A stretch of DNA of 30,661 bases from Candidatus Magasanikiibacteriota bacterium (GTDB taxonomy: Bacteria; Patescibacteriota; Patescibacteriia; Magasanikbacterales; UBA922), in NCBI GenBank assembly GCA_023246565.1, contig JAHFIE010000001.1, positions 1 to 30,661 on the forward strand, in the 5' to 3' direction. Below are positions 3,627-22,954 of this stretch, piece by piece. The position numbers and the translations under genes were made by a program. Each line of letters starts with the position of its first letter. Within the stretch, counting starts at the first letter, position 1. Under the pieces are notes generated by a model. The model had not been told where the DNA came from. It saw only the letters and a list, made by a program, of their open reading frames with translations, and searched no databases.

Positions 3627-3662
3627 AATCCTTATTCATTCACTATATTTTGCAAATAAAAC

Positions 3663-3733: not shown

Positions 3734-3761
3734 GGTGGGAATGAACGGTTGGTACGGGGTG

Positions 3762-6753: not shown

Positions 6754-6866
6754 AAGAATATAAAGTACATAACCTTATCATTCTACTCATACCACAATAA
6801 ATTGCAAATCAACACTTGCCCTTTTAGAACTTGTGTCGTACAATACTATCGTTCCTTATTTCACCT

Positions 6867-7862
6867 ATGAAAAGTCTCAATCAATTTGTTCGAGAATTTC
6901 TTGAACACTTAGAAATTGAAAAAAATAGAAGCCTGCAAACCATCCGTAATTATGAATTTTACCTTGGTCGCTTTGTTGAATGGTTTGGAGATAAAAATCC
7001 GAGTTCAATCAGCGCGGATAAAGTCCGAGAATACCGTTTGTGGCTCAATCGTCTCATTGATGTTCATGGTGATCCTCTGAAAAAAAATACTCAGAATTAT
7101 CATCTCATTGCACTGCGATCATTTTTAAAATATTTAGGTAAACGTGATATTGAAACCTTGTCAGCGGAAAAAATTGAACTCATGAAAATGCCAGATCGAG
7201 AAGTATCGTTTCTTGAAGGCACGGATTTGAGTAGAATTCTGGAAGCCCCCCTACAAATACAGACCCATACAAAAGAATCAGACAACAATCAACTACTCAA
7301 CAATGAAACAAAAATAAAATATCGTGATAAAGCAATCTTAGAAATGTTATTTTCCACAGGCCTCCGCGTATCCGAACTTATTAATTTAAGACGTGATTTA
7401 GTGAATCTTAAAAAAGAAGAATTCACGGTCATGGGGAAAGGGCGCAAATCACGTATTGTATTTGTGTCTGACCAAGCCAGGTATTGGCTCAAAAAATATC
7501 TGGACACACGGGGTGATCTTAATCCATTTCTTTTTATTTCATACGACAAACGCACGAGTAAAAATACTACGGCAAAAAAAGGAACATTGGAGATTGATGA
7601 ACAACCACTAACGCCGCGTTCAATTCAAAGAATTGTGCAAAAATACGCCAAGGTCGCGGGTATTACCAAATCAGTCACGCCACACACGCTCAGACATTCT
7701 TATGCCACTGACCTTTTGCAAGGTGGGGCAGATATTCGTAGTGTGCAAGCAATGCTTGGCCATTCTTCCATCACCACCACACAAATTTATACGCACATTA
7801 CGGACAAAGAATTACGCACGATTCATAAAAAATTTCATGGAAAAAAACGTGGCACTGATTGA
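6867..7862 (+). CDS. Xer-family tyrosine recombinase (XerC/XerD-like)
   Basis: SAM-like N-domain; catalytic R (TGLRVSE), K (VMGKGRK), HxxR (HTLRHS), H (LGH), Y (TTQIY); ATG 6867 preferred over track start 6831; upstream TTGCCC-17-TACAAT. Confidence 0.9.
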   Translation: MKSLNQFVREFLEHLEIEKNRSLQTIRNYEFYLGRFVEWFGDKNPSSISADKVREYRLWLNRLIDVHGDPLKKNTQNYHLIALRSFLKYLGKRDIETLSAEKIELMKMPDREVSFLEGTDLSRILEAPLQIQTHTKESDNNQLLNNETKIKYRDKAILEMLFSTGLRVSELINLRRDLVNLKKEEFTVMGKGRKSRIVFVSDQARYWLKKYLDTRGDLNPFLFISYDKRTSKNTTAKKGTLEIDEQPLTPRSIQRIVQKYAKVAGITKSVTPHTLRHSYATDLLQGGADIRSVQAMLGHSSITTTQIYTHITDKELRTIHKKFHGKKRGTD

Positions 7863-7928
7863 CAAAAAGTATTATTCAAGTACAATAAAAATTCAAAATT
7901 AGAATCTTTTATAGTTAACAATATCCAT

Positions 7929-8003
7929 GTCCCTGTAGTTCAATGGATAGAACGAGAGCCTTCTAAGCTTTAGATCGTGGTTCGATTCCACGCGGGGACA
8001 CCA
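7929..8003 (+). tRNA. tRNA-Arg(UCU)
   Basis: Acceptor gtccctg/cggggac, anticodon loop cttctaa, T-loop ttcgatt, encoded CCA. Confidence 0.95.
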
Positions 8004-8032
8004 GATGAAATTTACTCTTAAACTACTGTCAT

Positions 8033-8767
8033 ATGCCTACACTGATTGCTGTCATCGTCATCATCATTCTCGCCAGTATCCGTCAGGTGAATCAGTATCA
8101 ACGCGGGGTAAAATTTCAACTCGGAAAATTTATTACTGTTGTTGAACCCGGTTGGCGATTGATTTTTCCTATTTTTCAGAGTATGACCAAAGTGGACATG
8201 CGAGTAAAAGCTGTTGATGTTCCCTACCAAGAAGCCATTACGCGTGACAATGTTTCAGCAAAAATCAATGCAGTAATTTATTACCAAGTCAGTGAGGCGA
8301 GCAAAGCAATTCTAGAAGTGGAAAATTTTTGGTCCGCAGTGAATCAAATGGCGCAAACTACGATGCGCAATGTTATTGGCGAACTTGAACTTGATGAACT
8401 TTTGGCCAACCGCGAACAAGCTGCAAAACGAATCAAAGAAATTGTTGATGTTACCACAGAAACATGGGGAATAAAAGTGTTGAGTGTTGAACTCAAAGAT
8501 ATTGTTTTACCCGATGACATGCAGAGAGTCATTGCTCGACAAGCCGAAGCTGAACGTCAAAAACGAGCAGTAATTATTGAATCAAGTGGTGAAGTAATCG
8601 CGGCTGAAAATCTAGCAAAAGCAGCCAGTATTTTATCTTCTGCACCGGGAGCCCTTCATCTTCGTACATTAAACAGTATTAATGATATTAGTTCTGACCA
8701 ATCAAATACTATTGTTTTCGCGGTTCCTTTGGAAATATTGCGCGCGTTTGAGCGGAAGGAATCATAA
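8033..8767 (+). CDS. SPFH/band-7 (stomatin/slipin-like) membrane protein
   Basis: N-terminal TM; EAITRDNVSAKINAVIYY, AQTTMRNVIGELELDELL, MQRVIARQAEAERQKRA motifs. Confidence 0.92.
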   Translation: MPTLIAVIVIIILASIRQVNQYQRGVKFQLGKFITVVEPGWRLIFPIFQSMTKVDMRVKAVDVPYQEAITRDNVSAKINAVIYYQVSEASKAILEVENFWSAVNQMAQTTMRNVIGELELDELLANREQAAKRIKEIVDVTTETWGIKVLSVELKDIVLPDDMQRVIARQAEAERQKRAVIIESSGEVIAAENLAKAASILSSAPGALHLRTLNSINDISSDQSNTIVFAVPLEILRAFERKES

Positions 8768-8788
8768 ATATTCAAAACACTAATTATA

Positions 8789-8812
8789 AAGCCGTCCTGA
8801 TGAGGGGCGGTT
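8789..8812 (+). terminator. Intrinsic terminator after SPFH gene
   Basis: aagccgtcc-tgatga-ggggcggtt followed by T-run. Confidence 0.6.
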
Positions 8813-8815
8813 TTA

Positions 8816-8845
8816 TTGACATATCTGATCATAAATTGCTACTGT
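8816..8845 (+). promoter_or_regulatory. Probable sigma70 promoter of the MFS gene
   Basis: TTGACA (8816-8821), 18 bp, TACTGT; GGAGG RBS before ATG 8885. Confidence 0.5.
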
Positions 8846-8884
8846 AGACCAAATTCAGCACAGGCTGCTGACGGAGGGATAGCA

Positions 8885-10314
8885 ATGGATTACTCGCACA
8901 CGCCGGCATTTCGCTGGCGTCGGATGTGGAATTGGCTCCCCATGGGGATCGCGTATGCGCTCCTGTACATGGGGCGATACAACCTCAACGTCGCCCAGAG
9001 CGCGCTCGGCGACAAGCTCATGACCAAGGCTCAGTTCGGCACGATCTTCGCGGTCGGAGCCTGGGTCTACGCGCTGTCGTTCCTCGTGAACGGCCCGCTC
9101 ACTGACAAGGTTGGTGGACGTCGAACCATGTTGATCGGTGTCATGGGCGCGCTCATCGTGAATTTCGCGATGGGACTCGTCCTGTACGGCAACACCCGAC
9201 TCGGCTGGGACATGCCGATCATCTCGACCTTCACCGTCCTCTTTGCTCTCAACATGTACTTCCAGAGCTTCGGCGCAGTTTCGATTGTGACCGTGAAGGC
9301 GCCCTGGTTCCATGTGCGTGAGCGGGGCACGTTCTCCACCATCTCGGCATCCTCATCTCCGCAGGCATTTTCTTTGCCTTTGACTGGGGATTCGCCATCG
9401 TGAACGCGAGTCGCGCGACTCCGAAGGAAGACCTTGGCTTCTGGGCAGCGGTCTTCAAGTCGGTGTTCGGACTCGGCGCGAGCGGAGACGACGAGAACTG
9501 GGCCATCTTCTTCATCCCTGCCATCCTTCTCTCTGTCTTCTGGATCTTGATGTTCGCCTGGCTGCGCAACACCCCGGCTGAAGCTGGCTTCAAGAACTTC
9601 AAGACTGGTGAGGCCATGCTCTCGGCGAGTGGTGAGCGTGAACCGATCAAGACCGTGTTCTGGAAGATCCTCACGCATCCGGTCCTGCAGGTGGTCTGCA
9701 TCGTGGAGTTCGCGAGCGGCTTCCTTCGGAATGGGATCATGCAGTGGTACCCCAAGTTCGCGAAAGAGGTTGGGTTCTCCAAGGACTTCTGGATCAGCGA
9801 CAACTGGGGTCTTGCTCTGTTCATCTGCGGTGTTGCCGGCTCCTTTGCCACGGGCTGGATCTCGGATCGGTTCTTCCGATCTCGGCGGGCTCCCATGGCT
9901 GTCATCCTCTACATCTTCATGTTCGTTGCGCTCGTGTTCATGGGCGGTACTCTGACCGGGAACTTGTGGCTCGCGGGTAGCGCCGTCCTCATCGTTTCCT
10001 TCAGCGTCATTGGTGTGCACGGAATCTTCTCCGGCACTGCGACCGCTGACTTCGCAGGGACGAAGAACACGGGCGCGACCGTCGGGATCGTCGACGGCCT
10101 GGTCTACCTTGGAACCGGGCTCCAGTCGGTTCTCATCGGCTGGTACGCTCCCACTGGCCCTGCGGCCAAGGATCCGTCGAACTGGATGGGGTGGCCTATG
10201 CTCCTGATTCCGTTCGCGCTCATGGGTTGTTTCTTTGCGAACCGGATCTGGAACGCCAACCCCATTCCGGCCACGGTTGATGAACCCTACCAGAAGTACG
10301 ACCTCCGACGCTAG
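8885..10314 (+). pseudogene. GC-rich MFS transporter, organophosphate:Pi antiporter (GlpT/UhpC-like) family, split by a 1-nt deletion near 9344
   Basis: N-half ...YALLYMGRYNLNVAQ...LTDKVGGRR...WFHVRERGTFST; adding one T to atc-tc-ggc gives TIFGILISAGIFFAFDWGFAIVNAS, joining ORF 9400-10314 (GWISDRFFRSRRAP, GATVGIVDGLVYLG). Confidence 0.85.
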
Positions 10315-10407
10315 ACCATTGTTCTTTTCTCGTGCAGGACACATCAACTGCACCTTCGGACCATTTATTTCTTCAATTGAAGGAAAAAATAGACGGAGCA
10401 CATTTGA

Positions 10408-10436
10408 TTGACACAAGGCCTTTTTTTCTTTATACT
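10408..10436 (+). promoter_or_regulatory. Consensus sigma70 promoter for tRNA-His
   Basis: TTGACA-caaggcctttttttctt(17)-TATACT. Confidence 0.8.
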
Positions 10437-10462
10437 TTCACCGCGATCAAGACCCCCAGAGG

Positions 10463-10535
10463 GGTGGCCTTAGTGAAATGGTTATCACGCGAGTTTGTGG
10501 CACTCGCAGTACGGGTTCAATTCCCGTAGGCCACC
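10463..10535 (+). tRNA. tRNA-His(GUG), encoded G-1 and C73, CCA not encoded
   Basis: gtggcct/aggccac acceptor, anticodon arm cgagt-ttgtggc-actcg, T-loop ttcaatt. Confidence 0.93.
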
Positions 10536-10567
10536 CCTTTGCTGGGGTCTTTTCGTTTTTAATACAT

Positions 10568-11671
10568 ATGCCCAATGTTCTTATTTTAACCGCAGCCATG
10601 GGCGGTGGACATAATGCCGCGGCGCGCGCGCTGGCCGAGGCAAGTTCGCACTACAAAGATCTTTCGGTTCTGGTCTTGAATGTAAATGATGCGGCAGGTA
10701 AAACCGGTAAAAAACTTCTGGTTTCTTCATATCATGTCTTGGCCGGAAAATTACCACGAGTGTGGAAATTTTTATATAAAAATACCAACAATGCTCTGGC
10801 GCAGAATATTTTTGCCAATATCAGTGCCGTTCTCTCCGGGATATCCGCAAAACAAATTATAGAACAAGCAAAAAAATTTAAGCCTGACTATATTTTGGGA
10901 ACTCATTTTTTTGCTCCTTACTTTTTGAGCAAAACTCCACTCGCAAAAATACCCTGGGGTATGGTGGTAACTGATTATGCTTGGCATGAAATGTGGTACC
11001 ACCCTATGATTCATAATCATTTTGTTGCCAACAAAATGATTAAAAATAAAAGCAAAACTTTTCAAAGAAACTCAGCTCATTTCTCTATCACTGGTATCCC
11101 CGTGAATCCGGAATTTTATATAACAAAAAATCCTGAGACACTGCGAGAAAAATATTCTATTCCACTCGATCAACCATGTATCCTTCTCCTATCTGGTGGT
11201 GATGGTTTCACTCATGTTGCTGATAGTATTCCTTATTTTAAAAAAATCAAAAAACCCATCACGATTATTGCTATTGCGGGAAAAAATGTAGGATTAGAAC
11301 AAAAATTTGAAAAACAACCATGGCCCAAAGACAGTATTCATCAAGTAGTCGGCTGGACCAATACCATGGATGAATACATGCGTATGGCTGATATTATTGT
11401 GAGTAAACCTGGTGGATTAACAGTAAGTGAATGCCAGGCACTTGGCAAATATATGATCATGGTTTCTCCGATCCCTGGCCAGGAAGAAGCGAATGCTCAG
11501 TACGTCGAGTCCCATGATTTTGGTAAAATAGCACAAGATAATAACGAAGTTATTGATTTGATTAATCAATTTTTAGAAAATCCAAAAAAGTTAATGACCA
11601 AAAAAAATCTGCCAGCAACGGATGCTATCTGGCAGACCATTATCAAAGAATTACAACAAAAATCTAGTTAG
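10568..11671 (+). CDS. GT-B glycosyltransferase, MGDG-synthase/UgtP-like (GT28)
   Basis: AMGGGHNAAA, VVTDY, GIPVNPEF, ADIIVSKPGGLTVSE, SPIPGQEEANA motifs; real start ATG 10568 (track ORF begins inside the tRNA). Confidence 0.85.
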   Translation: MPNVLILTAAMGGGHNAAARALAEASSHYKDLSVLVLNVNDAAGKTGKKLLVSSYHVLAGKLPRVWKFLYKNTNNALAQNIFANISAVLSGISAKQIIEQAKKFKPDYILGTHFFAPYFLSKTPLAKIPWGMVVTDYAWHEMWYHPMIHNHFVANKMIKNKSKTFQRNSAHFSITGIPVNPEFYITKNPETLREKYSIPLDQPCILLLSGGDGFTHVADSIPYFKKIKKPITIIAIAGKNVGLEQKFEKQPWPKDSIHQVVGWTNTMDEYMRMADIIVSKPGGLTVSECQALGKYMIMVSPIPGQEEANAQYVESHDFGKIAQDNNEVIDLINQFLENPKKLMTKKNLPATDAIWQTIIKELQQKSS

Positions 11672-12134
11672 GTATGGCTGTATTCTGTTGCAGTGGATCT
11701 TTGTTATAAAAATCACTATCTGGTTTAACATAAAAATCAGCTTTTTCTTGATAGGGATCTTCTTGAGATTTTCCCCACATAACTGTAAAAAACTTGGCAA
11801 TGCCATAAGAACTCAAAACCACCATAATACCAATCGCGCCTGTGGTAATAATGCTTTTTGCTCGAGTGATTTTGTCACTGTCTCCGGCTGAAGTGAAAAT
11901 AAGATAACCACCAAAAAAAGTCCAGGCAGTAAACATAGTACCGACGACCGTAAGGAATACTTTAATAATTTGAGCTGTCAAAAGACGTGGATCAACTTCT
12001 TTGAGATTCGCACCCTTTTCTCCGGCCAAGGCTTGATTCTGTTTTTGAATATCAGCCAAAAGATCTTGGGCAAAAACCGGTTGGTATCCAAGAAAAAAAA
12101 TAAATGAGCATGTAAGGAGTAAAACAAATTTCAT
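11664..12134 (-). CDS. TrbC/VirB2-like (T4SS_pilin-type) pilin 1
   Basis: Signal peptide; two hydrophobic helices around TSAGDSDKITRAKSII. Confidence 0.8.
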   Translation of the reverse strand: MKFVLLLTCSFIFFLGYQPVFAQDLLADIQKQNQALAGEKGANLKEVDPRLLTAQIIKVFLTVVGTMFTAWTFFGGYLIFTSAGDSDKITRAKSIITTGAIGIMVVLSSYGIAKFFTVMWGKSQEDPYQEKADFYVKPDSDFYNKDPLQQNTAIPN

Positions 12135-12154
12135 AATTTCAACAAATTCAAATA

Positions 12155-12586
12155 TTACTGTTCACTCGAAAATCCTGTTTGTGGTGAAGCTTTTTTTATT
12201 GATTCATTCACTCGATTACCTACAAACGTAGTAATGCTGTAGGCCATGAGAATAATCACCAATCCAACCGCGGCTTTTTCAATTGTTTCCTTGGCCTGAT
12301 CAATTTTACTTGAATCACCATCAGATTTGATCAGTCGAAAACCACCGGTAATAATGAGGGCAACAAATAATGTTCCCAAAAGTTTGAGAATAAAACCAAT
12401 AATTTCCGCAGCCAAAACTCTTGGGTCAGTTGGATTCGCCGCAGAACTGGTTGTGGTTAAACCAGCACCAACTCCTCCGGCTTGAAGCTGACTATCATAA
12501 ATACCCGTAGTAATTTGAGCTTGTGTTACTATTGGCATCACAAGACCGCTCAATACTATTAATGTGGCTATTATATTCATTTTCAT
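12155..12586 (-). CDS. TrbC/VirB2-like pilin 2
   Basis: Signal peptide; DPRVLAAEII...KSDGDSSKIDQAKETI...AYSIT. Confidence 0.8.
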   Translation of the reverse strand: MKMNIIATLIVLSGLVMPIVTQAQITTGIYDSQLQAGGVGAGLTTTSSAANPTDPRVLAAEIIGFILKLLGTLFVALIITGGFRLIKSDGDSSKIDQAKETIEKAAVGLVIILMAYSITTFVGNRVNESIKKASPQTGFSSEQ

Positions 12587-12606
12587 AATAAAATTAATTG
12601 CCTACT

Positions 12607-13077
12607 CTAGGGGATTTGACCACCAACATCAGCCCCAGCTCCTCCCGCCCCAATTCCACCAGCTCCAGCACCAACTCCACTTGCTGCGGGTGGTGTAACT
12701 GCCTTAGCAGCAATATTTTTCATGACAAAACTGGTTATTCCATACGAAGCCAAAGCAATAATTAAACCAACAATACTCGTCTCAATAATTGATTTTGCTT
12801 TTTCAACATTTCCTTCATCACCACGCGCAGTCATCCAAAGATACCCTGCATAAAAAATAAGAGCAGTAAAAACTATACCTGTCACGGACAAAACTGCTTT
12901 TATAATAGTACCAATATTTTGAGCAAACGTTGTTTCGGTCGTATTTGCCGCATCATAACCAGCTTTACCTGCAGCGTCTTTGGCTAAACCAAGACCAAGG
13001 TCAATAGCCATGGTTGATTGGGTTGTAGCAATCAATATCGTGGTTATAAATACAAAACTAAAAAATATTTTTTTCAT
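12607..13077 (-). CDS. TrbC/VirB2-like pilin 3 with Gly/Ala-rich tail
   Basis: WMTARGDEGNVEKAKSII; C-terminal GVGAGAGGIGAGGAG. Confidence 0.85.
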   Translation of the reverse strand: MKKIFFSFVFITTILIATTQSTMAIDLGLGLAKDAAGKAGYDAANTTETTFAQNIGTIIKAVLSVTGIVFTALIFYAGYLWMTARGDEGNVEKAKSIIETSIVGLIIALASYGITSFVMKNIAAKAVTPPAASGVGAGAGGIGAGGAGADVGGQIP

Positions 13078-13085
13078 AGCAAACC

Positions 13086-13460
13086 TTATGGACCACTCGA
13101 AAAACGAGTAGTCACAAACACGGTAATCGCGTACGCACTTACCGTGACAAATAAACCAATGATCGCTGCTTCAATAATATCTCGAGCTTTTTCTACCTTA
13201 CCCTCGTCACCACGGGCTGTCATCCACATAATGCCAGCATATACCATTAAAATCAAAAAAATCAAACCAATAATACTTAAAATTGCTTTAATCGTTGTCC
13301 CCACTAGGTCTTGCGCATTTGACTGGCCCGATACACCAGCTTTATTGGCAATAGAATTAAGCATTGCCTGATCTTTAATCCCTTGAGCAAAAACAAATGA
13401 TGGAACAGTGAGTATCATCAATACCAGACTTAAAAAAAATTTTTGTATGGTTTTTTTCAT
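13086..13460 (-). CDS. TrbC/VirB2-like pilin 4 (minimal form)
   Basis: MKKTIQ signal peptide (ATG 13460); WMTARGDEGKVEKARDII. Confidence 0.85.
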   Translation of the reverse strand: MKKTIQKFFLSLVLMILTVPSFVFAQGIKDQAMLNSIANKAGVSGQSNAQDLVGTTIKAILSIIGLIFLILMVYAGIMWMTARGDEGKVEKARDIIEAAIIGLFVTVSAYAITVFVTTRFSSGP

Positions 13461-13464
13461 AGTA

Positions 13465-14349
13465 TTAAACTCCAGCCTGACCAGAACCAAAAGGGTTAGA
13501 ATCATTATTTTCTTGTGCCTTCAAACCATCATTACATTGATTTTGTGTACTAAAGAGCTGACCAGGACAAGGACTACCACTTCCTGATACGCAGTTACCC
13601 TCAGGGGTGAGGCACCAGCTTTCTTTTTCTTGTCCCGAACCTAAGTCTGACTTTGTCAGTACATTATTCAGACACTGCAAAGTACTACCAGAACTTGTCC
13701 AACAAGAAAGTATGTCCGAACAAGCTGCAGTGCCTACTCCGGGATACATATTCCATTTGCCGTCAGTACCCTTTTTTGAACCATAATCATCTCCCACCGT
13801 TTCTTTTGCTTTGGCTTCACAATCTTGCTCTGTACCAATCATCATGGTTTTTTGTGAGAAAAGATTACTTGTGGCTGGTGTGATACAGCAGACTAAGGTA
13901 CCTCCACCACCAATCACGTTTGGTGCGTCACCAGTTCCATCCAAACTTCCACCACCTGATTTATCCAAAATTATTTTTTGTACGACCAAATTCGTAATCG
14001 CGTATGAACCTACAACAATGACCAGTCCAATAACCGCGGCAATGATGGTTTCTCGCGCCTTGGTTACTTTGTCTTCTTCACCACGAGCCAACATCCAGGT
14101 AAATCCAGCATAAAACATAAGAATAAAAAAGACCAAGCCGATTGCTCCTAAAATTCCTTTGACTGCGGTGCCAGCAATGGTCGCTGTATCTGTTTTTTCA
14201 ATTCCTGTTGGAGCCACTACTGCATCAAGAGCACTGGATGCATCACCAAGAGTTTGTTTTGCTAGGGCAGTGAATGGTTGTAAAGAAAATACTAAACCAA
14301 AAAAAAGTAAACTGAACCAAATAACACGTTTTTTTTGACTTAATACCAT
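13465..14349 (-). CDS. TrbC/VirB2-like pilin 5 with C-terminal Cys-rich extension
   Basis: WMLARGEEDKVTKARETII, Gly linker, then Cys-rich domain. Confidence 0.85.
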   Translation of the reverse strand: MVLSQKKRVIWFSLLFFGLVFSLQPFTALAKQTLGDASSALDAVVAPTGIEKTDTATIAGTAVKGILGAIGLVFFILMFYAGFTWMLARGEEDKVTKARETIIAAVIGLVIVVGSYAITNLVVQKIILDKSGGGSLDGTGDAPNVIGGGGTLVCCITPATSNLFSQKTMMIGTEQDCEAKAKETVGDDYGSKKGTDGKWNMYPGVGTAACSDILSCWTSSGSTLQCLNNVLTKSDLGSGQEKESWCLTPEGNCVSGSGSPCPGQLFSTQNQCNDGLKAQENNDSNPFGSGQAGV

Positions 14350-14392
14350 ATCCTGACCCGTAAAAAATTTGAGCGTTACTTATATGGTTACC

Positions 14393-14488
14393 TGTCATTC
14401 TGGCGAAAGCCAGAATCTAGTATTTATTTAATCCAATTCTGGATTCTGGCTGGAGTTTATCCCGATGAAAATCGGGACCAGAATGACA
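14393..14488. mobile_element. 96-bp MITE/NIME-like palindromic element, copy 1
   Basis: 11-bp terminal inverted repeats tgtcattctgg/ccagaatgaca; ATTCTG-N8-CAGAAT unit; internal cccgat-gaaa-atcggg hairpin; same length and near-identical to 18515-18610. Confidence 0.8.
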
Positions 14489-14522
14489 TTATCCAATACT
14501 GGATACTGACTCTGGTTTATCC

Positions 14523-15167
14523 TTATTTCTTCGAACAACAAACTTTTGGACCTGCTCCACACAAACCACTTATAAAACTATTCCCTTTAACATAAGTCCC
14601 TTTTCCAACAGTACTCACATAGGCATCTAACTCATCTTTTGTTCCTTGAGTTTCATCACATTCAGTTTTAACATAACAACCAAGAGCAGGGTATTCGTCT
14701 TCACAAGGTAATTTAGTTGGAGCCTGGGGTGCTGCTGGCGCTGGTTTTACCCCTCCACCCCCTGCACTACCAGTCCCAACACTCTTAAAGACAAAATTAG
14801 TTAGAGCATATGATCCGAGCACAATTACCAAACCAATCGCGGCCGCGATAATCGTATCAAGTGCTTTGTGAGCTTCGTCTTCATTCCCACGGGCCAACAT
14901 CCATCGTATACCAGCATAGAGCATGAGACCAAAAAACAAAACTGAGACAAGGGATAATCCTGTTCCAACCACATCACCAAGTACGGTCGTAATCGATTTT
15001 GAAGTTTGAATCCCTGCGGCTGTGGCTGTCTCCTCAAGGCCATAATCAGCCAAAGCTGGAGTTGCAAAAGTTACCAAAAAGGACATTATTATTCCAATAA
15101 AACCCAGAATCCAAAATTTTTTCAGAAAAAGAACATTTTTGAGAGCCAACGAAACAGGATAGTTCAT
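14523..15167 (-). CDS. TrbC/VirB2-like pilin 6 with C-terminal 6-Cys module
   Basis: WMLARGNEDEAHKALDTII; Pro/Ala linker; C-x8-C-x5-C-x32-C-x6-CC. Confidence 0.85.
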   Translation of the reverse strand: MNYPVSLALKNVLFLKKFWILGFIGIIMSFLVTFATPALADYGLEETATAAGIQTSKSITTVLGDVVGTGLSLVSVLFFGLMLYAGIRWMLARGNEDEAHKALDTIIAAAIGLVIVLGSYALTNFVFKSVGTGSAGGGGVKPAPAAPQAPTKLPCEDEYPALGCYVKTECDETQGTKDELDAYVSTVGKGTYVKGNSFISGLCGAGPKVCCSKK

Positions 15168-15247
15168 AAAAGAAGTCTACAGATTATTGAGACGCCCATA
15201 GTCCGATTGGACCAGGGGCGATATCCAGAATCCGTATGCAATGAAAC

Positions 15248-15661
15248 CTACGTTGCGCTCGGAGTATTGATAGCCTTGGTAGCACTTTTTATCACAAAGC
15301 TTGAAATTGAATATGCTGCCAAAATAATAACTAATCCAATGACTGCGGCTGACATAATGGTTTTAGCTTTGGTAACATTATCTTCATTTCCCGCAGCAGT
15401 CATCCAAAGAAAACCGGCGTAAAAAATTAAAACAGTGGCAATAGTACCAAGAACCCCAAGAACCACATTGATAATCCCTGTAGCAATAAGACGTGGATCA
15501 TTATTCGTCAGTTTTGAACCTTCAACACAATTAAGACCAAGGGGATCAGCAGGATCATTCCCACAAGGAGGTTCCGGATCAGCCATAGCTGCTGGCGCTA
15601 AAGTAAGAAGTCCAAGAACAAAAACACTCGTGAGAATACCTTTAAACCAATTTTTTTGCAT
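15248..15661 (-). CDS. TrbC/VirB2-like pilin 7
   Basis: DPRLIATGIINVVLG...WMTAAGNEDNVTKAKTIM. Confidence 0.87.
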   Translation of the reverse strand: MQKNWFKGILTSVFVLGLLTLAPAAMADPEPPCGNDPADPLGLNCVEGSKLTNNDPRLIATGIINVVLGVLGTIATVLIFYAGFLWMTAAGNEDNVTKAKTIMSAAVIGLVIILAAYSISSFVIKSATKAINTPSAT

Positions 15662-15696
15662 AGATTTAAAAATTATTATTGGAATAGATTATTACT

Positions 15697-16242
15697 TTAA
15701 AAATCCGTTGGGATATTGTCTTTATTACCACCAGTTGCAGTTGACAATTGATTGATCACAAAGAGAGAAATTGCCCAGGCAGAAAGGATAATAGCAAGAC
15801 CAATAATTCCGGAGAAGATCATCTTGCGAGCTTCACCGACTTTATCTTCATTACCACCAGCTGTCATCCATTTAAAGCCACCGGCAAGGACGATTACTAC
15901 AGCGATAAGACCAAGGAGACCGAGAAGAACGTTAATCAAGTTTGCTGCGGTTTCACGAAGATCTTGATTGCCGAGTTTACCTTTTACTTGATTACCAACC
16001 GGGTTGAGTCCAAAAAGATCTTTTTCACAAGTACCAGGAACATCTGGCTTCGTAGCGTCTTTTTTACAGGTTTCACCAGATTCACAGGCAAGTGAAGAAC
16101 AGCATGAACCAGCTACTGGTTTTCCATCAGCGCCCTTTACCGTAACACAAGCCGCCTGAGTTACTGCTGGCGCAGCAGCAAAAGCCAAAAAACCAAAGAC
16201 GGTGAAGCCAATGACAATGTTCTTTAGACTGAGTCTGGACAT
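15697..16242 (-). CDS. TrbC/VirB2-like pilin 8 (N-terminal Cys module; core identical to pilin 9)
   Basis: WMTAGGNEDKVGEARKMI; CCSSLACESGETC module. Confidence 0.88.
   Translation of the reverse strand: MSRLSLKNIVIGFTVFGFLAFAAAPAVTQAACVTVKGADGKPVAGSCCSSLACESGETCKKDATKPDVPGTCEKDLFGLNPVGNQVKGKLGNQDLRETAANLINVLLGLLGLIAVVIVLAGGFKWMTAGGNEDKVGEARKMIFSGIIGLAIILSAWAISLFVINQLSTATGGNKDNIPTDF
15740..15981. repeat. 242-bp direct repeat, copy 1 (matches 16395-16636)
   Basis: Offset 655 bp; no mismatch seen by eye; translations in the + strand shadow ORFs of both copies are identical. Confidence 0.88.
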
Positions 16243-16265
16243 AAGGCAAAAAATTAATAATCAAA

Positions 16266-16329
16266 TTATGAATTACGAATATAGACTGAGGACTTCGTAA
16301 CTCATAACTCGTCCCGAATGATTCGGGAC
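16266..16329. repeat. Two adjacent palindromes between pilins 8 and 9
   Basis: ttatgaattacgaa (16266-16279) / ttcgtaactcataa (16294-16307), 1 mismatch; gtcccgaat-g-attcgggac (16311-16329). Confidence 0.7.
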
Positions 16330-16351
16330 AGAGTCGACAAAAAATACATCC

Positions 16352-16864
16352 TTAAAAATCCGTTGGAATATTTTCTTTATTACCACCAGTTGCGGTTGAC
16401 AATTGATTGATCACAAAGAGAGAAATTGCCCAGGCAGAAAGGATAATAGCAAGACCAATAATTCCGGAGAAGATCATCTTGCGAGCTTCACCGACTTTAT
16501 CTTCATTACCACCAGCTGTCATCCATTTAAAGCCACCGGCAAGGACGATTACTACAGCGATAAGACCAAGGAGACCGAGAAGAACGTTAATCAAGTTTGC
16601 TGCGGTTTCACGAAGATCTTGATTGCCGAGTTTACCACTGACTTGGTTTCCAACCGGATTCAAGCCAAAGGTATCTTTTTCACATTTTCCATTGCCACCT
16701 GTCAGTTCATCGGCAGTGCCTTTACAGGTTTCGCCAGATGAACAATCAAGCGCGGTTTTACAACCAGCTAGGGTAGCTGAAGGTAATACCAAAAAACCAA
16801 AAAAGGCGGCAATTATAATGGCAAGGCTGACTTTTTTGTGCGTTAATGTAAGTGTTTGTAACAT
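16352..16864 (-). CDS. TrbC/VirB2-like pilin 9 (N-terminal Cys module; core identical to pilin 8)
   Basis: GCKTALDCSSGETC...GKCEK then the same core; GGAGG RBS upstream. Confidence 0.88.
   Translation of the reverse strand: MLQTLTLTHKKVSLAIIIAAFFGFLVLPSATLAGCKTALDCSSGETCKGTADELTGGNGKCEKDTFGLNPVGNQVSGKLGNQDLRETAANLINVLLGLLGLIAVVIVLAGGFKWMTAGGNEDKVGEARKMIFSGIIGLAIILSAWAISLFVINQLSTATGGNKENIPTDF
16395..16636. repeat. 242-bp direct repeat, copy 2
   Basis: See 15740-15981. Confidence 0.88.
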
Positions 16865-16911
16865 GGTATCACCTCCCTTCAGTTTAGGGTGAATAAATAT
16901 TTTTTTGAAAA

Positions 16912-17595
16912 CTAATTTTGTGGTGGAGAAAGAATTTTTTTACAACTTGCCTCATCAGGAAGTGGCGTACCACCATTTGCAAGACAATTTGTAGCTGGAT
17001 TTTCTTGACAAACACCATCTACAAAACACCAATTGAATGTTAGAGAATAATCACATGCTTCTTGACTGTCATACGGTATCCCAGCACAAGCATTCCCTGA
17101 CATTATAGCACACTGATTTGTTTTCATGTCCACACAATAAACTTGCAATGAATCAGCCGTCGTATTTCCCGCACCAATTCCTTTAAATACCAACTTCAGT
17201 ATAGCATAGCTCGAAAAAATAATACATATACCAATCACTGCCCACAGCATCGCATCACTACCTTGTTTAACTTTTTCCGCATTACCTGCTGCAGTAACCC
17301 ACATAAATCCACCGTACACAAATACGAGTAGAGCTAATGAGCCCAAAATACCCAATACATTCGCAATTGCTTTTCCAACGATTTGTTGTAAATTCGTTGT
17401 TCCTTTTATGGGATCTTCCCCTGATATTGGATTAATTAATTGGACAATAGTTTTATTTTTATCTTCTTTACCAGCATTGGCTGGTTTGGGTGGGATTGGT
17501 ACAGGCGCAGCTTCTTCTGCCAGAGCCAAAACTGGGGTAAGAAAAAAAATACTTATCCCGATCAAAATCATTATTTTTGATACAAATTTCATCAT
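16912..17595 (-). CDS. TrbC/VirB2-like pilin 10 with two C-terminal 4-Cys repeats
   Basis: WVTAAGNAEKVKQGSDAM; YC..C..C..C and WC..C..C..C modules; ATG 17595 preferred over TTG 17610. Confidence 0.83.
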   Translation of the reverse strand: MMKFVSKIMILIGISIFFLTPVLALAEEAAPVPIPPKPANAGKEDKNKTIVQLINPISGEDPIKGTTNLQQIVGKAIANVLGILGSLALLVFVYGGFMWVTAAGNAEKVKQGSDAMLWAVIGICIIFSSYAILKLVFKGIGAGNTTADSLQVYCVDMKTNQCAIMSGNACAGIPYDSQEACDYSLTFNWCFVDGVCQENPATNCLANGGTPLPDEASCKKILSPPQN

Positions 17596-17674
17596 ATCTT
17601 TTTGATCCAATTAATATGTTATCCAAACCAACTTTTCTATCATTTTCACAAAGTAGATTAGACCAATCTTGGAC

Positions 17675-17700
17675 TGTCATTCTGGCGAAAGCCAGAATCC
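17675..17700. repeat. Truncated half of the 96-bp element
   Basis: tgtcattctggcgaaagccagaatc matches the first 25 bp of the full copies. Confidence 0.8.
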
Positions 17701-17709
17701 AGAATCGTA

Positions 17710-18444
17710 TTACTTAATTGCCTTAAATTCATCCCCTACACCCAACGTGTTCAAGATAAACGCCACAATGAGATATGCTGAAAAAACAATAATGATTCCT
17801 ACAACCGCGGCCACCATAACATCACGTCCTTGTTTTACTTTGTCCGGACTCCCAAAGGAAAATACCATCAAAAATCCACCGTATACAAAAGCTGTCAAGG
17901 CAATCATGCCAATAATACCAAAGATAAGTTTACCCTGATTAATGAAAACTTGAACCAGGTCATTAACATCGCGACACGTACCAGAAAAAGCACACTTTGG
18001 AATTGGTCCTTGATAATTATCTAACGAAGGATCATTTTCATAATTATCTTTTATATACTGACACACAGCACCACACTCAGATGTTGAACTTGAAGAACCC
18101 CCAGCCCCTTTCGCACCACCAGCATCCTTTTTTTTCACACAACAAACTTGACCAGTCTGACAAATTCCCACAATAAAAGCTGCTTTTTTATCTTTATTTT
18201 GAGCTGTTAGTTCTTTATTATTTTCAATTAATGTTTGCGTCTGAGCCGCAACATCAGGATTACAATCACTTTTTGCAGTACACGCATAACCTAGGGCAGA
18301 AAAATCATCGCACTTAACCGCCCCAACGTTCTGTGTCATGCCAAATACACCGTATAAAAAAATAACGAACCAAAATCCGAAAAGAAAAGGGTTCTCTATT
18401 TTATGGTTGGTTTTCCCCAGTACTTTTTTTAAACTAAATACCAT
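17710..18444 (-). CDS. TrbC/VirB2-like pilin 11 with N-terminal 6-Cys module
   Basis: C-x9-C-x5-C-x33-C-x5-CC module; core VFSFGSPDKVKQGRDVMVAAVVG. Confidence 0.83.
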   Translation of the reverse strand: MVFSLKKVLGKTNHKIENPFLFGFWFVIFLYGVFGMTQNVGAVKCDDFSALGYACTAKSDCNPDVAAQTQTLIENNKELTAQNKDKKAAFIVGICQTGQVCCVKKKDAGGAKGAGGSSSSTSECGAVCQYIKDNYENDPSLDNYQGPIPKCAFSGTCRDVNDLVQVFINQGKLIFGIIGMIALTAFVYGGFLMVFSFGSPDKVKQGRDVMVAAVVGIIIVFSAYLIVAFILNTLGVGDEFKAIK

Positions 18445-18514
18445 AGTTTTCGGAAGATTGAGGTGGTCATTTTATTTATCTGTAGAAAATTTGAGCATTA
18501 TGTATATGGTTCTC

Positions 18515-18610
18515 TGTCATTCTGGCGAAAGCCAGAATCTAGTATTTATTGAATTCAACACTGGATTCTGGCTGGAGTTTATCCCGATGAAAATCGGGAC
18601 CAGAATGACA
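18515..18610. mobile_element. 96-bp MITE/NIME-like palindromic element, copy 2 (followed by degenerate partial copy to ~18660)
   Basis: Same TIRs and internal hairpin as 14393-14488; differences confined to the central spacer. Confidence 0.8.
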
Positions 18611-18717
18611 ATACTTGAATCACGCTTGGAGTTTATCCCCACGAAAGTCGAGATCAGAATAATAGGATTGAAATGTAAACAACGCTCGGATTTCTAACAT
18701 TTTAGTTTATATGCTTT

Positions 18718-20103
18718 TTATAATGTCTGACTAACAATTTGCGCTGCTCGCACAACAGCACTGGCATCTTTTTTATAAATATCCTGATCAGTCGTTTTTT
18801 CTTCATTGAGTGGTTGTAAAATAGCAGCGATCATTTCATCAAACGCATTTTCAGCCGAAATAATATCTCGACCATGATACCAATTTTTGGCAATCAAAAC
18901 TTGACTCGAAAATGGACCAATGACCGGATCAGCCTCTTGAGCTTTAATATGAACCCTGAGGGCTGAAGGTTGATGTACTGCATCAGCATAACCTTTGATT
19001 CTGTCAGGTTCAGACATAAACCGGATAAAATCCCAAGCTTCATTTTGATTTTTGGATTTTTTTACCACCGATTGCAACCAATAGCTAGCCACGTTAGCCT
19101 GTATATTTGGGTTTAATTGCGGTAAAGGCATGATTTCAATATTCAAATCTGGTGCGCGTGATTTAAGACGATCATAATCATAGGCAAAACCAAAATAAAA
19201 TCCTGTTTTACCTCGGACAAAAGCATCAAACGCACTATTTTGATCATCATTCCATGAATAGGCTTCTTTATTTGGCCGCGCAAAATCTGTGTAAAAATTA
19301 AGAGCCTGCAATGCTGGATGCGTCGCATTCGCTTTTTCAAAACCAGCTGAAAAAGTTATTCCTCCATATGAACCAGCCATGGTCACACCATTCTGGAGCA
19401 TAAGAGCCGAGACAATATCAAAAGCATTTTCAATATTTTTTCCTGTACCAAGAGACGCACCGGATTGAAGAATTTTTCTATCCTTATCAAGTTTAGTGAT
19501 GCGTTTAACCGCTTCGACGAATTCATTCCAATCTTTGGGTGGTTCTGGCAAGCCAGCCTTATCGAGTAAATCTTTATTGTAATAAACTGCCAAAGTATCC
19601 ACGGTAAGGGGTAAACCATACATTTGTTTGGCAATTACCGCGTCATCGGGTACGGTCGCAACATATGCTTTTTTAAGGCTCTCAAGCGTTGGCATGTTGA
19701 ACGTGTCGAACAAGACCGCGGTTTCTTTGGTAATGGTACTGGTCTGAACCAATTTTCCCATGGTTACGGTTGCTGGCATGGGTACCAAACGATTTTGATA
19801 CTTTCGTAACCATCGAACATGCATAGAAACCATGTCCGGCGCAACATCATCAGCAAGAGCATTGATAAAAAGCTTATCAAATTCATCATATCGTACTTGA
19901 CGAATGTTAATGGTAACATGGGGGTTTTCCCCTTTATACTGAGTCGCTAAATTTCTGAGCTGATCAACATTATCATAGACCGTCCAAAAATTAAGCGTCA
20001 CCGGACGAATCGCTGCTTGTTGGTCTTGGGATAATCCCTTGCAGCCAAAACCAGTGATGATCACGGTAATCGACAAACATGCAAGACGCAAAAAAATTTT
20101 CAT
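18718..20103 (-). CDS. Extracellular solute-binding lipoprotein (carbohydrate ABC SBP-like, cluster B/MalE type)
   Basis: Lipobox-like VIITGFGC; VTLNFW, YGLPLTVDTLAVYYNKDLL, PPKDWNEF, AWDFIRFM; ATG 20103 preferred. Confidence 0.85.
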   Translation of the reverse strand: MKIFLRLACLSITVIITGFGCKGLSQDQQAAIRPVTLNFWTVYDNVDQLRNLATQYKGENPHVTINIRQVRYDEFDKLFINALADDVAPDMVSMHVRWLRKYQNRLVPMPATVTMGKLVQTSTITKETAVLFDTFNMPTLESLKKAYVATVPDDAVIAKQMYGLPLTVDTLAVYYNKDLLDKAGLPEPPKDWNEFVEAVKRITKLDKDRKILQSGASLGTGKNIENAFDIVSALMLQNGVTMAGSYGGITFSAGFEKANATHPALQALNFYTDFARPNKEAYSWNDDQNSAFDAFVRGKTGFYFGFAYDYDRLKSRAPDLNIEIMPLPQLNPNIQANVASYWLQSVVKKSKNQNEAWDFIRFMSEPDRIKGYADAVHQPSALRVHIKAQEADPVIGPFSSQVLIAKNWYHGRDIISAENAFDEMIAAILQPLNEEKTTDQDIYKKDASAVVRAAQIVSQTL

Positions 20104-20104
20104 A

Positions 20105-21358
20105 CTACTTAAAAGCTTCAAAAACAATTTTGAGCAATGCATAACTTGCAAAAATCACGGCAAGTCCAAGGGCAGTCCAGACAATAATATGTTTTGCTTT
20201 TGTTTCACGTTCAGCATTTCCTAAATCAGTCATCCATAGTATACCACCATAAATAAACATCACCAAGGCAATACTTCCTAAAACTCCCATGAGTGTGGAA
20301 ATAATTCTGGCAGCGAGTATTCGTGGATCAACCGTATCGATTTTATTCAGACTGGCAGTGGAGGGAATGACAAATTCATTGATCTCTTCCTTTTTTTCTT
20401 CAGGAGGATTTTGTGCTTCGCACAATACACTCATAAGTTCTTCCCCCTCGTCTTTTTTTAAATCAGCAGGATTCATGTTGGGATGTTTGCCGGCCAGTGA
20501 CTGACAATATCCCACATCAACATTTACCGCGGCCGTTGGATCCAAATCAGTTGGTTTAAACTCAACAGTAGAAGTAGTTATTTGGTATACATTCAACTCT
20601 TTTTTAGCCAAATCAGAATTTTTTGGACCACTTGATTCTGTTTGTACACATGCACCCATGCTATCAGCATTATTCGCAGGCATTTCACATTTTCCTGAAA
20701 CACAATCAGCATTTACCTTGCAATTTTGCTGTCCCAATGGGCATTTGATCCCAAAATAAGCCGCGCAAAGACCACCACAAGGTTTGCTGTTACCAGCCAC
20801 TTGACGTATACCCGTTGCATGAACCACACTCGGATCTACTGTGGATTCATTACATTTGTCTTCTGTGATGATGGTATTGTCAGAATAAACATCATAACTA
20901 CTTTTGTGACCAATAGCACTGTCAGGATCACTTTCATCAACAAAAATACCTTCGACACAGAATCCGTATTCACAAATCAAATTTTGGTCATACTTATTTT
21001 TTCCACAGTCTTTATCATTATGGCATGTGCCATTAAAGGGACAAAAAAGTCCGATGCCGGTCGCGCAATGTCCACCACACATTTTTCCATTTAATTCACC
21101 GGTTGCAACCAAATTACCAAACGCCTTGAAATCAAGAGCACACTGGTCTTTTAGATCAGCATATCCAAATTTTGGCCCATCGGATGCTGGTACATCATTA
21201 ATGGAAGCATTACTAACAATTTTTTTATATACAAAACTACATTTACAGGTTGTATCAGCGTAAACAACATCAAACAAAAATAGTAGGCTGATAATTCCTA
21301 CAAAAAAACTGAATGCAATACTACTTAAACGCCCCAAATACCAATTGGAGAATGGCAT
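20105..21358 (-). CDS. Large TrbC/VirB2-like pilin 12 with Cys-rich, internally duplicated N-terminal region
   Basis: C-terminal DPRILAARIISTLMG...WMTDLGNAERETKAKHII; two CGGxCA...CP...C..DC repeats; start uncertain (21358 or 21367). Confidence 0.8.
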   Translation of the reverse strand: MPFSNWYLGRLSSIAFSFFVGIISLLFLFDVVYADTTCKCSFVYKKIVSNASINDVPASDGPKFGYADLKDQCALDFKAFGNLVATGELNGKMCGGHCATGIGLFCPFNGTCHNDKDCGKNKYDQNLICEYGFCVEGIFVDESDPDSAIGHKSSYDVYSDNTIITEDKCNESTVDPSVVHATGIRQVAGNSKPCGGLCAAYFGIKCPLGQQNCKVNADCVSGKCEMPANNADSMGACVQTESSGPKNSDLAKKELNVYQITTSTVEFKPTDLDPTAAVNVDVGYCQSLAGKHPNMNPADLKKDEGEELMSVLCEAQNPPEEKKEEINEFVIPSTASLNKIDTVDPRILAARIISTLMGVLGSIALVMFIYGGILWMTDLGNAERETKAKHIIVWTALGLAVIFASYALLKIVFEAFK

Positions 21359-22076
21359 AACTGGCAAAAATTACAGCCAGGCCCAGGGAACCCCAGACCA
21401 GGATATGCCGAGCTTTTTCTTCTTTTTCTGCTGCGCCAGACGAAGACATCCACAAAATACCACCATAAATAAACATCACCAGGGCGATGCTCCCTAAAAT
21501 CCCAATGAGTGTGCTAATAAGACGCGCAATGAGGACACGTGCGTCAACCGTATTGATTTTGTTAAAAGCATCATTGGTTTCTTTTTCAACTTGAAGTTTG
21601 ATTTCATCATTCATCCCACCTCCTGAAGTACTGGTAGCAGCAGTTTTTGACTTACTATCCTTTCCTGATTTATATACTGGGTCGGTTTTACCTTGAACAC
21701 TGACTATATTACAACTTATTGAATAGCTATAAATGGATTTTATTTCAATTGCGGATTTAAAAAAGCATTCTTGATCATCTTCATTAAGAGGTGATTTCAT
21801 AAGCGTAGCTTCATTGATCAAGTGACCATACGAATCACAGCTTGTGGAGAAAGGAATTTTATCAATAAGATCTTTAACCGTAGTAATTTTATCCAATTCA
21901 AAAGTAACTGATTTATTTATTTGGCATTTTTGATCTGTGGTAACAAAATCCTTAACCGTGACATTGCAATCACACCCAACTGCTGCGATTGCAGAATCAA
22001 TCGGATAACCAAACAAAACTGACAAATTTATGACAGAAATAAATACAACAGTAAAATATTTTCTGTAATGCTTCAT
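21321..22076 (-). CDS. TrbC/VirB2-like pilin 13 with N-terminal variable domain
   Basis: DARVLIARLISTLIG...WMSSSGAAEKEEKARHIL; core closely related to pilin 12. Confidence 0.82.
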   Translation of the reverse strand: MKHYRKYFTVVFISVINLSVLFGYPIDSAIAAVGCDCNVTVKDFVTTDQKCQINKSVTFELDKITTVKDLIDKIPFSTSCDSYGHLINEATLMKSPLNEDDQECFFKSAIEIKSIYSYSISCNIVSVQGKTDPVYKSGKDSKSKTAATSTSGGGMNDEIKLQVEKETNDAFNKINTVDARVLIARLISTLIGILGSIALVMFIYGGILWMSSSGAAEKEEKARHILVWGSLGLAVIFASYAILQLVFGAFK

Positions 22077-22954
22077 GCTGAACCAAAAAATTTTTCAATC
22101 TCACTTCTCATTTCTTTATCTTTCAACGCAAAATGAATCGCGGTCTTAAGAAGCGCTAATTTGTCTCCCGTATCAAAGTAAACGCCTTCATATTCATAGG
22201 CCAAGAATGGTTTTTTCTTGGCGAGTTGGTTTGCCGCGTCCGCAACCCAAACTTCATTATCCTTGCCTTGATTTTGTTTCTCAAGCACAGGCCAAATATC
22301 TTTGGTAAAAACATACCGCATACCACCAACAATCAATCCCTCGGGCGAAGTTTGATCTGTCGGAGGCTTTTCTCTAAACTCCTCCACGCGATACACTCGT
22401 TTCTCTTTTGTTGGTTTTGCGTAAACATTACCATATTTTGTCATGGCAACACGATCATGAATTTTTTGTACACCAATAATCGAAGACTGATGGTACTGAA
22501 AAACTTTCAATAACTGTTTTACAACAGGAATTTTCGCGTCAATAATACTATCACCATCAGAAAAAACAAATGGTTCATCACCCAAAAATTGCCGTGCGCA
22601 TAAGAGAGCATGACCATTACCCAAGGGTTCTGGCTGTCGGGTATAAAAAAAACGCACTTTTGATGATAGCTCAACCAATGAACTTAACTTTTCAAATTTT
22701 CCTTTCTGCTTCAAAAAATGCTCTAAGTCTCGATCCCGATCAAAATGATCTTCAATTGACCGTTTTTGCGAACTCGTGACAAAAATAATTTCAGTTATAC
22801 CACTCGCGACCATTTCTTCTACAATGTACTGAACCACAGGTTTATCCAAAACTGGTAACATTTCTTTAGGCATGGCTTTGGTCGCAGGTAAAAAACGAGT
22901 CCCCAAACCAGCGACAATAATTACTCCTTTGCGAACTGAATTTATTTTTGACAT
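22073..22954 (-). CDS. galU: UTP--glucose-1-phosphate uridylyltransferase
   Basis: VAGLGTRFLPATKAMPKEMLPVLDKPVVQYIVEE, QPEPLGNGHA, YFDTG motifs. Confidence 0.9.
   Translation of the reverse strand: MSKINSVRKGVIIVAGLGTRFLPATKAMPKEMLPVLDKPVVQYIVEEMVASGITEIIFVTSSQKRSIEDHFDRDRDLEHFLKQKGKFEKLSSLVELSSKVRFFYTRQPEPLGNGHALLCARQFLGDEPFVFSDGDSIIDAKIPVVKQLLKVFQYHQSSIIGVQKIHDRVAMTKYGNVYAKPTKEKRVYRVEEFREKPPTDQTSPEGLIVGGMRYVFTKDIWPVLEKQNQGKDNEVWVADAANQLAKKKPFLAYEYEGVYFDTGDKLALLKTAIHFALKDKEMRSEIEKFFGSA

Follow-up and report, generated by a model that had tools for sequence, protein, structure and literature searches.

The window analyzed here, 30,661 nucleotides long, is the whole of contig C84 (JAHFIE010000001.1; 30.6 kb) from the genome of an ultrasmall Candidatus Magasanikiibacteriota bacterium recovered from groundwater metagenomes (954 kb, 87 contigs, 93.8% complete). 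It harbored 13 co-oriented pilin open reading frames (ORFs) on the minus strand, spanning positions 11664-22076 and encoding proteins of 124-420 aa, the minimum length presuming that pilin 4 starts at the ATG at 13460. One non-pilin gene, coding for a 477-aa solute-binding protein (SBP) of the SBP_bac_1 family (18718-20151), split the array between pilins 12 and 11. The features are given below from the upstream end of the array, with bit scores against PF18895, the pilin family of type IV secretion systems (T4SSs).

22073-22954, minus strand: NTP_transferase gene (GalU-like; Pfam PF00483), the kept upstream neighbor of the array; 4 nt are common to its stop and to the start of pilin 13.
21321-22076, minus strand: pilin 13, 251 aa; signal peptide; 174-aa N-terminal region with 6 Cys before the core (signal peptide included); core at residues 175-251; PF18895 27.6 bits.
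20105-21367, minus strand: pilin 12, 417-420 aa; 343 residues with 20 Cys and two CGGxC modules ahead of the core, counting the signal peptide; hairpin at the C-terminus; PF18895 25.6 bits (hmmscan) or 29.9 bits (genome search).
18718-20151, minus strand: SBP_bac_1 protein (Pfam), lipoprotein-like, embedded in the array.
17710-18444, minus strand: pilin 11, 244 aa; 10 Cys in the N-terminal domain, of which a 6-Cys module is part; core-adjacent Cys pair kept; PF18895 35.3 bits.
16912-17610, minus strand: pilin 10, 232 aa; C-terminal extension of 84 aa with 8 Cys.
16352-16864, minus strand: pilin 9, 170 aa; 4 Cys in the N-terminal domain; forms a tandem duplicate pair with pilin 8.
15697-16242, minus strand: pilin 8, 181 aa; 6 Cys in the N-terminal domain; the other member of the tandem pair with pilin 9.
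15740-15981, minus strand: conversion tract of ~242 nt over the hairpin core, identical to 16395-16636 (DNA alignment).
15248-15661, minus strand: pilin 7, 137 aa; near-minimal, 2 Cys; PF18895 37.6 bits; AlphaFold2 (AF2) model with a predicted local distance difference test (pLDDT) score of 77.5.
14523-15167, minus strand: pilin 6, 214 aa; C-terminal extension of 81 aa bearing a 6-Cys module.
14360-14491, no strand assigned: compound palindromic intergenic element resembling repetitive extragenic palindromes (REP-like); more copies at 18482-18613, 18627-18660 and 17674-17705.
13465-14349, minus strand: pilin 5, 294 aa; C-terminal 10-Cys domain of 165 aa; aligns to orthologues at 38-43% identity.
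13086-13460, minus strand: pilin 4, minimal form of 124 aa, counted from the ATG at 13460.
12607-13077, minus strand: pilin 3, 156 aa; Gly/Ala-rich C-terminal tail.
12155-12586, minus strand: pilin 2, 143 aa; minimal form.
11664-12134, minus strand: pilin 1, 156 aa, at the downstream end of the array; PF18895 23.2 bits (hmmscan) or 26.0 bits (genome search); 99 bits against the hidden Markov model (HMM) of the array's own cores.

All 13 ORFs were complete, each with its own start codon, signal peptide and full core. Intergenic spacing across the array ranged from -38 to 273 nt, and the genes from the GalU-like gene via pilins 13 and 12 and the SBP, then from pilin 11 to pilin 1, appeared to form one operon. 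The best promoter-like site (23006-22979) was located upstream of the GalU-like gene, the count of such sites not being above chance, and the scan for promoters and terminators gave counts no higher than in shuffled controls.

All 13 proteins matched PF18895 (T4SS_pilin; gathering score 26.6 bits). Eleven of them scored above this threshold with hmmscan, pilins 1 and 12 falling below it, while a six-frame search of the genome brought 12 above it and left pilin 1 marginal. Despite its marginal score (23.2-26.0 bits), pilin 1 had clear orthologues and matched the core HMM of the array. Hydropathy profiles displayed in all 13 an N-terminal, signal-peptide-like hydrophobic segment, then two hydrophobic helices with a short polar loop between them. 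The AF2 model of pilin 7 formed a hairpin (helices at residues 56-88 and 93-132, pLDDT 84-91 over residues 61-130), and a confident helical hairpin was also obtained for pilin 11. The signal peptide and two-helix core that a sequence-only reading had assigned to all 13 genes were therefore upheld by the family matches, hydropathy and the AF2 hairpin, as were, given the pilin 4 start at 13460, the lengths and the extension sides that it had described. The loop motif that it had proposed was present as a loose consensus, just three Gly being invariant when the 13 window pilins were aligned with a further pilin encoded on contig C4.

Eight of the 13 pilins were extended, mostly by Cys-rich regions, N-terminally in pilins 8, 9, 11, 12 and 13 and C-terminally in pilins 5, 6 and 10. 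At a given array position, the side of the extension was mostly kept between species, while length and Cys count varied strongly: 229-521 residues (8-32 Cys) preceded the core at position 2, 78-317 at position 3 and 2-242 at position 9. Position-3 proteins kept family-wide a core-adjacent segment with an invariant Cys pair (C151/C157 in pilin 11), their distal part being hypervariable with large indels, and the N-domains of pilins 12 and 13 were not alignable to their orthologues. An exhaustive phmmer search of 1.84 billion representatives returned two weak relatives of the pilin 12 N-domain only, one of which was also hairpin-bearing. A k-mer search with this domain and with the pilin 5 C-domain returned the query itself only, the ESM Atlas gave no usable match for the extension domains, and the pilin 5 C-domain was without outside homologue in the searches made. 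In the AF2 model of pilin 11 (10 orthologues) the N-domain stayed below a pLDDT of 50, so that no fold was called, and none of the extensions was assigned a known fold with ESM Atlas or AF2. The real variation lies between species, in these extensions, which change rapidly and mostly in the two genes nearest the promoter (pilins 13 and 12). Elsewhere in the genome, a gene for a 238-aa PF18895 protein adjoined a DsbA-like thioredoxin gene (contig C82, 1-1501), a neighborhood that fits disulfide formation in Cys-rich ectodomains.

The array was located between the same two flanking genes in congeneric species. Colinear arrays with positional orthologues were found in six congeneric species and in three further relatives (L017, L019 and L021), two of these three being labelled Ca. 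Magasanikbacteria. Fully recovered congeneric arrays encompassed 11-13 pilin genes, with the same gap of ~1.4 kb after gene 1 or 2; the L019 array encompassed 14 pilins, and that of G001, split at contig ends, displayed 9 pilin genes. GalU-like orthologues (73-78% identical) adjoined the array in five congeners, and more orthologues did so in L017, L019 and L021. More broadly, 30 of the 31 genomes of the order had 9-30 PF18895 matches. Reciprocal best hits and an IQ-TREE tree of 79 cores grouped the paralogues into position clades with one member per genome, the exception being pilins 8 and 9, a lineage-specific tandem duplicate. Pilin orthologues were ~40-80% identical within the genus. At positions 1 and 2, cores were closer within a genome than between genomes, as displayed by pilins 12 and 13 (72% identical) and by G003.1 and G003.2, sisters in the tree. 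From these comparisons, the ~11 paralogue lineages and their order can be placed before the genus, reaching family depth, and the paralogues are for that reason probably not redundant. The array is a stable, vertically inherited locus and not a shuffling library.

This conservation bears directly on the proposal, made from the sequence only, that the array is a recombination-diversified adhesin library whose paralogues swap cassettes at junction repeats and so vary the displayed domains within a population, which we now consider very improbable. Array order and content, expected to vary among strains and metagenome-assembled genomes (MAGs), were fixed together with the SBP in the six congeners and three relatives, positional orthology being kept to family depth, and strains were colinear. 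The strong differences in extension length between species would suit a library, but 66 of the 72 extension-domain matches joined the same position and the same side. The other six were cross-position matches; in the clearest, the C-terminal 6-Cys module of pilin 6 resembled the N-termini of position-3 proteins from two congeners (E 1e-8), which speaks for exchange. So do the pilin 12 and 13 cores, more identical to each other than to their orthologues, the sister placement of G003.1 and G003.2, and the conversion tract of pilins 8 and 9. That tract was real (~242 nt identical, ending at the stop codon), but synonymous divergence (dS) was 0.017 in the core against ~1.0 in the extension: the conversion homogenized the conserved core and made it identical rather than diverse, while the variable N-domains stayed distinct. 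Unitigs broke at this tract, and one strain contig (X6 record 27) bridged both genes.

Strain comparisons pointed the same way. Contigs of the probable source sample, X1, and of X2, a sample of the same study, were 1-2 letters off the window, hence essentially invariant, and strains X5 and X6 (other studies) were colinear with it where covered. Divergence of X5 was 3-8% over pieces of pilin genes, matching the 3-7% over pieces of flanking genes and the SBP gene; these population data consist of assembled contigs, in which rare variants are invisible. The only joints were at REP copies or had short sides. The REP-like element, built from two hairpin units, gave 65 blastn hits on 25 contigs, with one copy just upstream of virB4 on contig C21, so the junction repeats are genome-wide rather than locus-specific recombination sites. 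A candidate 5' module shared by pilins 5 and 11 was rejected, as it consisted of the REP-like element plus ~35 nt, and similarity faded before the start codons. Since none of the 13 genes lacks its start codon, signal peptide or core, the array holds no silent cassettes. The sole recombinase gene among the larger ORFs of the window (6831-7862) belonged to the phage-integrase family and lay ~3.8 kb from the array.

A typical diversity-generating retroelement (DGR) was present on C4 (17713-20167), with a variable repeat (18124-18259) 85% identical to its template repeat (18636-18771) and 19 of the 20 differences at template A. It included a reverse transcriptase-like ORF (19172-20167, read by eye) and a GC-rich target ORF. 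Targeting of the array by this element was rejected, as its template matched C4 only and had no match on C84.

Regarding selection, the proportion of nonsynonymous differences (pN) was 0.05-0.24 in the cores, against a proportion of synonymous differences (pS) of 0.45-0.84, and reached 0.12-0.58 in the extensions; with dS saturated (>1) in nearly all orthologue pairs, these values stand as pN/pS contrasts only and have no bearing on positive selection in the extensions. The cores appear to be under purifying selection and the extensions change faster. Programmed recombinational diversification of the array was not supported, and the library proposal largely failed the refutation test that had been set for it. 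Variation arises slowly instead, as domains are gained or lost, with one tandem duplication specific to this lineage and with gene conversion now and then.

The absence of T4SS machinery, as initially reported, held for the window (none among the larger ORFs scanned) but not for the genome. Contig C21 encoded a 622-aa VirB4 (P-loop_TraG, 107 bits; 11849-13717), a homologue of PrgI/VirB3 and a VirB6-like protein of 1768 aa that matched TrbL weakly, and contig C31 carried a coupling protein gene. In addition, C4 (217-10899) harbored a Gram-positive-type T4SS resembling an integrative and conjugative element (ICE-like), with VirD4-like (916 aa), Replic_Relax, PF18895 pilin (122 aa), PrgI, VirB4 (799 aa) and Peptidase_M23 genes, the pilin gene being placed between the relaxase gene and PrgI/VirB4. 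This cluster was followed by a gene for a 1525-aa helicase/REase_MTES_1575 protein, and the last 120 nt of C4 were the reverse complement of its first 120 nt. VirB4 was found at 66-92% identity in 29 of the 31 genomes of the order. Across the class, 145 of 151 high-quality genomes had it, with 64-78% identity over full-length matches. At the sequence level, conservation of the chromosomal VirB4 is unusually high compared to that of the pilin orthologues within the genus. G017 had neither VirB4 nor array, but its GalU-like gene lay ~190 nt from a contig end, so that this joint absence is an assembly gap.

The hairpin was also fused to large cargo domains. On contig C15, it occurred in a 746-aa Big_5 protein (7200-9440) and in a 4207-aa Big_5/Laminin_G_3/TIG/LVIVD protein (9488-22111); on contig C22, in a 568-aa protein with a GDSL lipase domain (1-1705) and in a 725-aa Exo_endo_phos-hairpin-Amidase_2 protein (1707-3884). 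Many genomes of the order encoded open frames of ~2300-4700 aa with an N-terminal PF18895 match, several of which adjoined a PF18895 frame of 650-800 aa. Such fusions, from the giant protein to the nuclease-amidase and the lipase, are hard to see as bulk subunits and would suit the main rival explanation, in which PF18895 is a two-helix membrane anchor for Cys-rich, adhesive or lytic ectodomains, with no pilus and no need of a T4SS. The five minimal paralogues (1-4 and 7), however, have no folded ectodomain to hold, and the C4 ICE-like T4SS has its own PF18895 pilin next to its PrgI/VirB4 genes. The anchor would also account for an array unlinked to virB4 and for arrays kept in five class-level genomes (4-14 PF18895 matches) where VirB4 was found neither with the protein nor with PF19044. 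Four of these five are at least 98% complete by markers, all being MAGs of 10-50 contigs; as VirB4 is near-universal in the class, such apparently VirB4-less cases may be assembly gaps. Published data also weigh against an anchor, as 1135 of 1948 assemblies had pilin genes in the neighborhood of virB4 (Quinonero-Coronel et al. 2025, PMC12102498) and such genes were essential within the T4SS cluster of Southlakia epibionticum ML1, which has a six-gene array (Wang et al. 2023, PMC10633639). This essentiality was restated in a 2025 review, according to which a pilus is not yet shown (PMC12857230). Altogether, we hold the anchor explanation to be unlikely.

The SBP of the array was the only SBP_bac_1 protein of the genome, and its orthologues (48-68% identity) occupied the same array position (the ~1.4 kb gap) in nine related loci. 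BPD_transp_1 permeases were absent from the Pfam matches of all seven genus genomes (one 100% and one 98% complete), other permease families not having been searched. The SBP probably works with the pilin products rather than with an ATP-binding cassette (ABC) importer.

Much of bacterial diversity belongs to the Patescibacteria, which seem to live on other cells. Pilins of the VirB2/TraA type are exported by Sec and their signal peptide is cleaved; both termini lie outside and the loop inside, and VirB4 is needed for their extraction and polymerization. On balance, although far from certain, it seems probable that the locus is a VirB2-like pilin array feeding the chromosomal T4SS, with a mixed pilus or surface conduit made of short pilins in bulk and of decorated pilins as minor or distal components, and with slow variation rather than programmed recombination. 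Sec would export the array pilins, their signal peptides would be removed, and the hairpins would enter the membrane with the loop facing in and the two termini facing out. A T4SS resembling the mating-pair-formation class FATA (MPF-FATA), encoded on C21 (VirB4, PrgI/VirB3 and the weak VirB6-like protein), would then build the mixed pilus or surface conduit from them, VirB4-dependent extraction and polymerization leaving the termini, together with the extensions that they carry, on its outer surface. The short paralogues (1-4 and 7) would supply the bulk subunits and the decorated ones the minor or distal subunits that contact the host cell, with pilins 13 and 12, promoter-proximal and fastest-changing, as the likeliest specificity determinants. 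Of the display for host attachment proposed earlier, the display itself is thus plausible, in view of the predicted outward termini and of the hairpin fused to adhesin or lytic cargo, whereas its diversification by recombination is not.

Several observations weigh against a pilus or conduit built by this T4SS. No T4SS gene was found on the array contig among the larger ORFs scanned, near-complete relatives also carry the array and virB4 on different contigs, and the five genomes with pilin matches in which VirB4 was not found belong here as well. Extensions of 160-340 aa may not fit helical packing. The earlier designation of the genes as TrbC/VirB2-like was confirmed by PF18895 (11 of 13 by hmmscan, 12 of 13 in the genome search) but not by the TrbC family PF04956 (gathering score 27.9 bits), matches to which were sub-threshold, the best in the array reaching 17.5-18 bits; E was 0.003-0.005 for pilins 4 and 10 and, outside the array, 1e-4 for the pilin of C4. 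Fold searches with the pilin 7 model gave no Foldseek hit in the PDB at E <= 0.001 and only generic helical hairpins with VIA-align wide, such a search being uninformative and non-specific for a two-helix hairpin, and a core-profile sequence search of solved structures gave no match. The putative operon status derives from the spacing (-38 to 273 nt), and no report of a pilus for any Patescibacterium was found in the literature searched.

A more extended version can be drawn, that of an armed feeding pilus of epibiotic Patescibacteria, although we regard it as quite improbable. The hairpin would be a general module for T4SS-dependent display, and the ~11 fixed paralogues would build one composite pilus or surface conduit. 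Cys-rich binding modules would cover its outer face together with the giant Ig/lectin adhesins and with a lytic nuclease, amidase and lipase, while the permease-less SBP would capture released host nutrients.

Arrays of this kind are already published for Patescibacteria, with 441 VirB2 arrays of 2-11 pilin genes, in tandem or with one non-pilin gene between, in 383 assemblies; their mean identity was 25% and the maximum 54%, and a role in adapting to host strains was proposed (Quinonero-Coronel et al. 2025, PMC12102498). The locus described here is one more case, slightly above the published size range (13 genes here and 14 in L019). It resembles those arrays, including that of S. epibionticum ML1 and the 'Sec-secreted array' of N. 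lyticus TM7x, in its PF18895 hairpins and signal peptides, in its tandem layout split by one non-pilin gene (13 genes plus the SBP) and in its low paralogue identity. Also common to both are a chromosomal location, a monoderm envelope, an MPF-FATA-like T4SS and, in the genome, a Patescibacteria-type VirB4 (C21) and a coupling protein (C31), the host-adaptation role having been hypothesized there already. The array is unlinked to virB4 here, a linkage that is not obligatory in the published set, and core identities of 72% and 100% put two of its pairs above the 54% maximum reported there. The 25% average of the published arrays and the core mean of 35% here were measured differently. Family-deep positional orthology, Cys-rich terminal extensions, an SBP within the array for which no permease was found and fusions of the hairpin to cargo were unmentioned in the literature searched, the fixed order, the SBP and the fusions being possibly new.

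Compared to more distant systems, the array shares several divergent tandem copies with the T4SSs of Bartonella and Anaplasma phagocytophilum, which have tandem VirB2 paralogues (cited in PMC12102498) thought to broaden host-surface interaction or antigenic repertoire. Those belong to diderm animal pathogens and are short pilins with no fused domains, whereas the set described here is much larger, anciently fixed and decorated. With Neisseria pilE/pilS, it has in common clustered pilin-related sequences, repeats and gene conversion. The Neisseria system, however, relies on an unrelated pilin family, one expressed gene, truncated promoterless cassettes and a locus-specific recombination initiator, while here all copies are complete and keep their order, the repeats occur throughout the genome, and no variation was seen in the source population beyond 1-2 letters. 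Long signal peptides, two hydrophobic helices and a short charged loop are found as well in TraA (F), VirB2 (Ti) and TrbC (RP4) of PF04956; the array pilins differ from these by PF04956 matches below threshold, by having no solved relative by sequence or specifically by fold, by their monoderm host and by large extensions on many copies.

In the single Patescibacterial species amenable to genetics, the genes for the T4SS and its pilins are essential. That the array of the Magasanikbacteria lineage is an ancient, fixed set of paralogues, as opposed to a variable cassette store, argues for a multi-subunit structure with division of labor. The promoter-proximal, fast-changing N-domains and the embedded SBP would be its likeliest host-specific parts, which narrows the targets for proteomics, imaging and genetics.

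Outside the array, the window encoded three tRNA genes (10464-10535, 7929-8000 and 29842-29912) and a SAM-I riboswitch (30050-30183). The first of these tRNA genes overlapped the 5' end of an ORF resembling monogalactosyldiacylglycerol (MGDG) synthase (10478-11671), the real start of which is therefore probably further downstream. Two stretches were GC-rich (3762-4433 and 9067-10416; 0.56-0.59 compared to ~0.39 elsewhere), one of them encoding a Cu-binding_MopE-motif protein and the other overlapping an MFS_1 fragment on the opposite strand.

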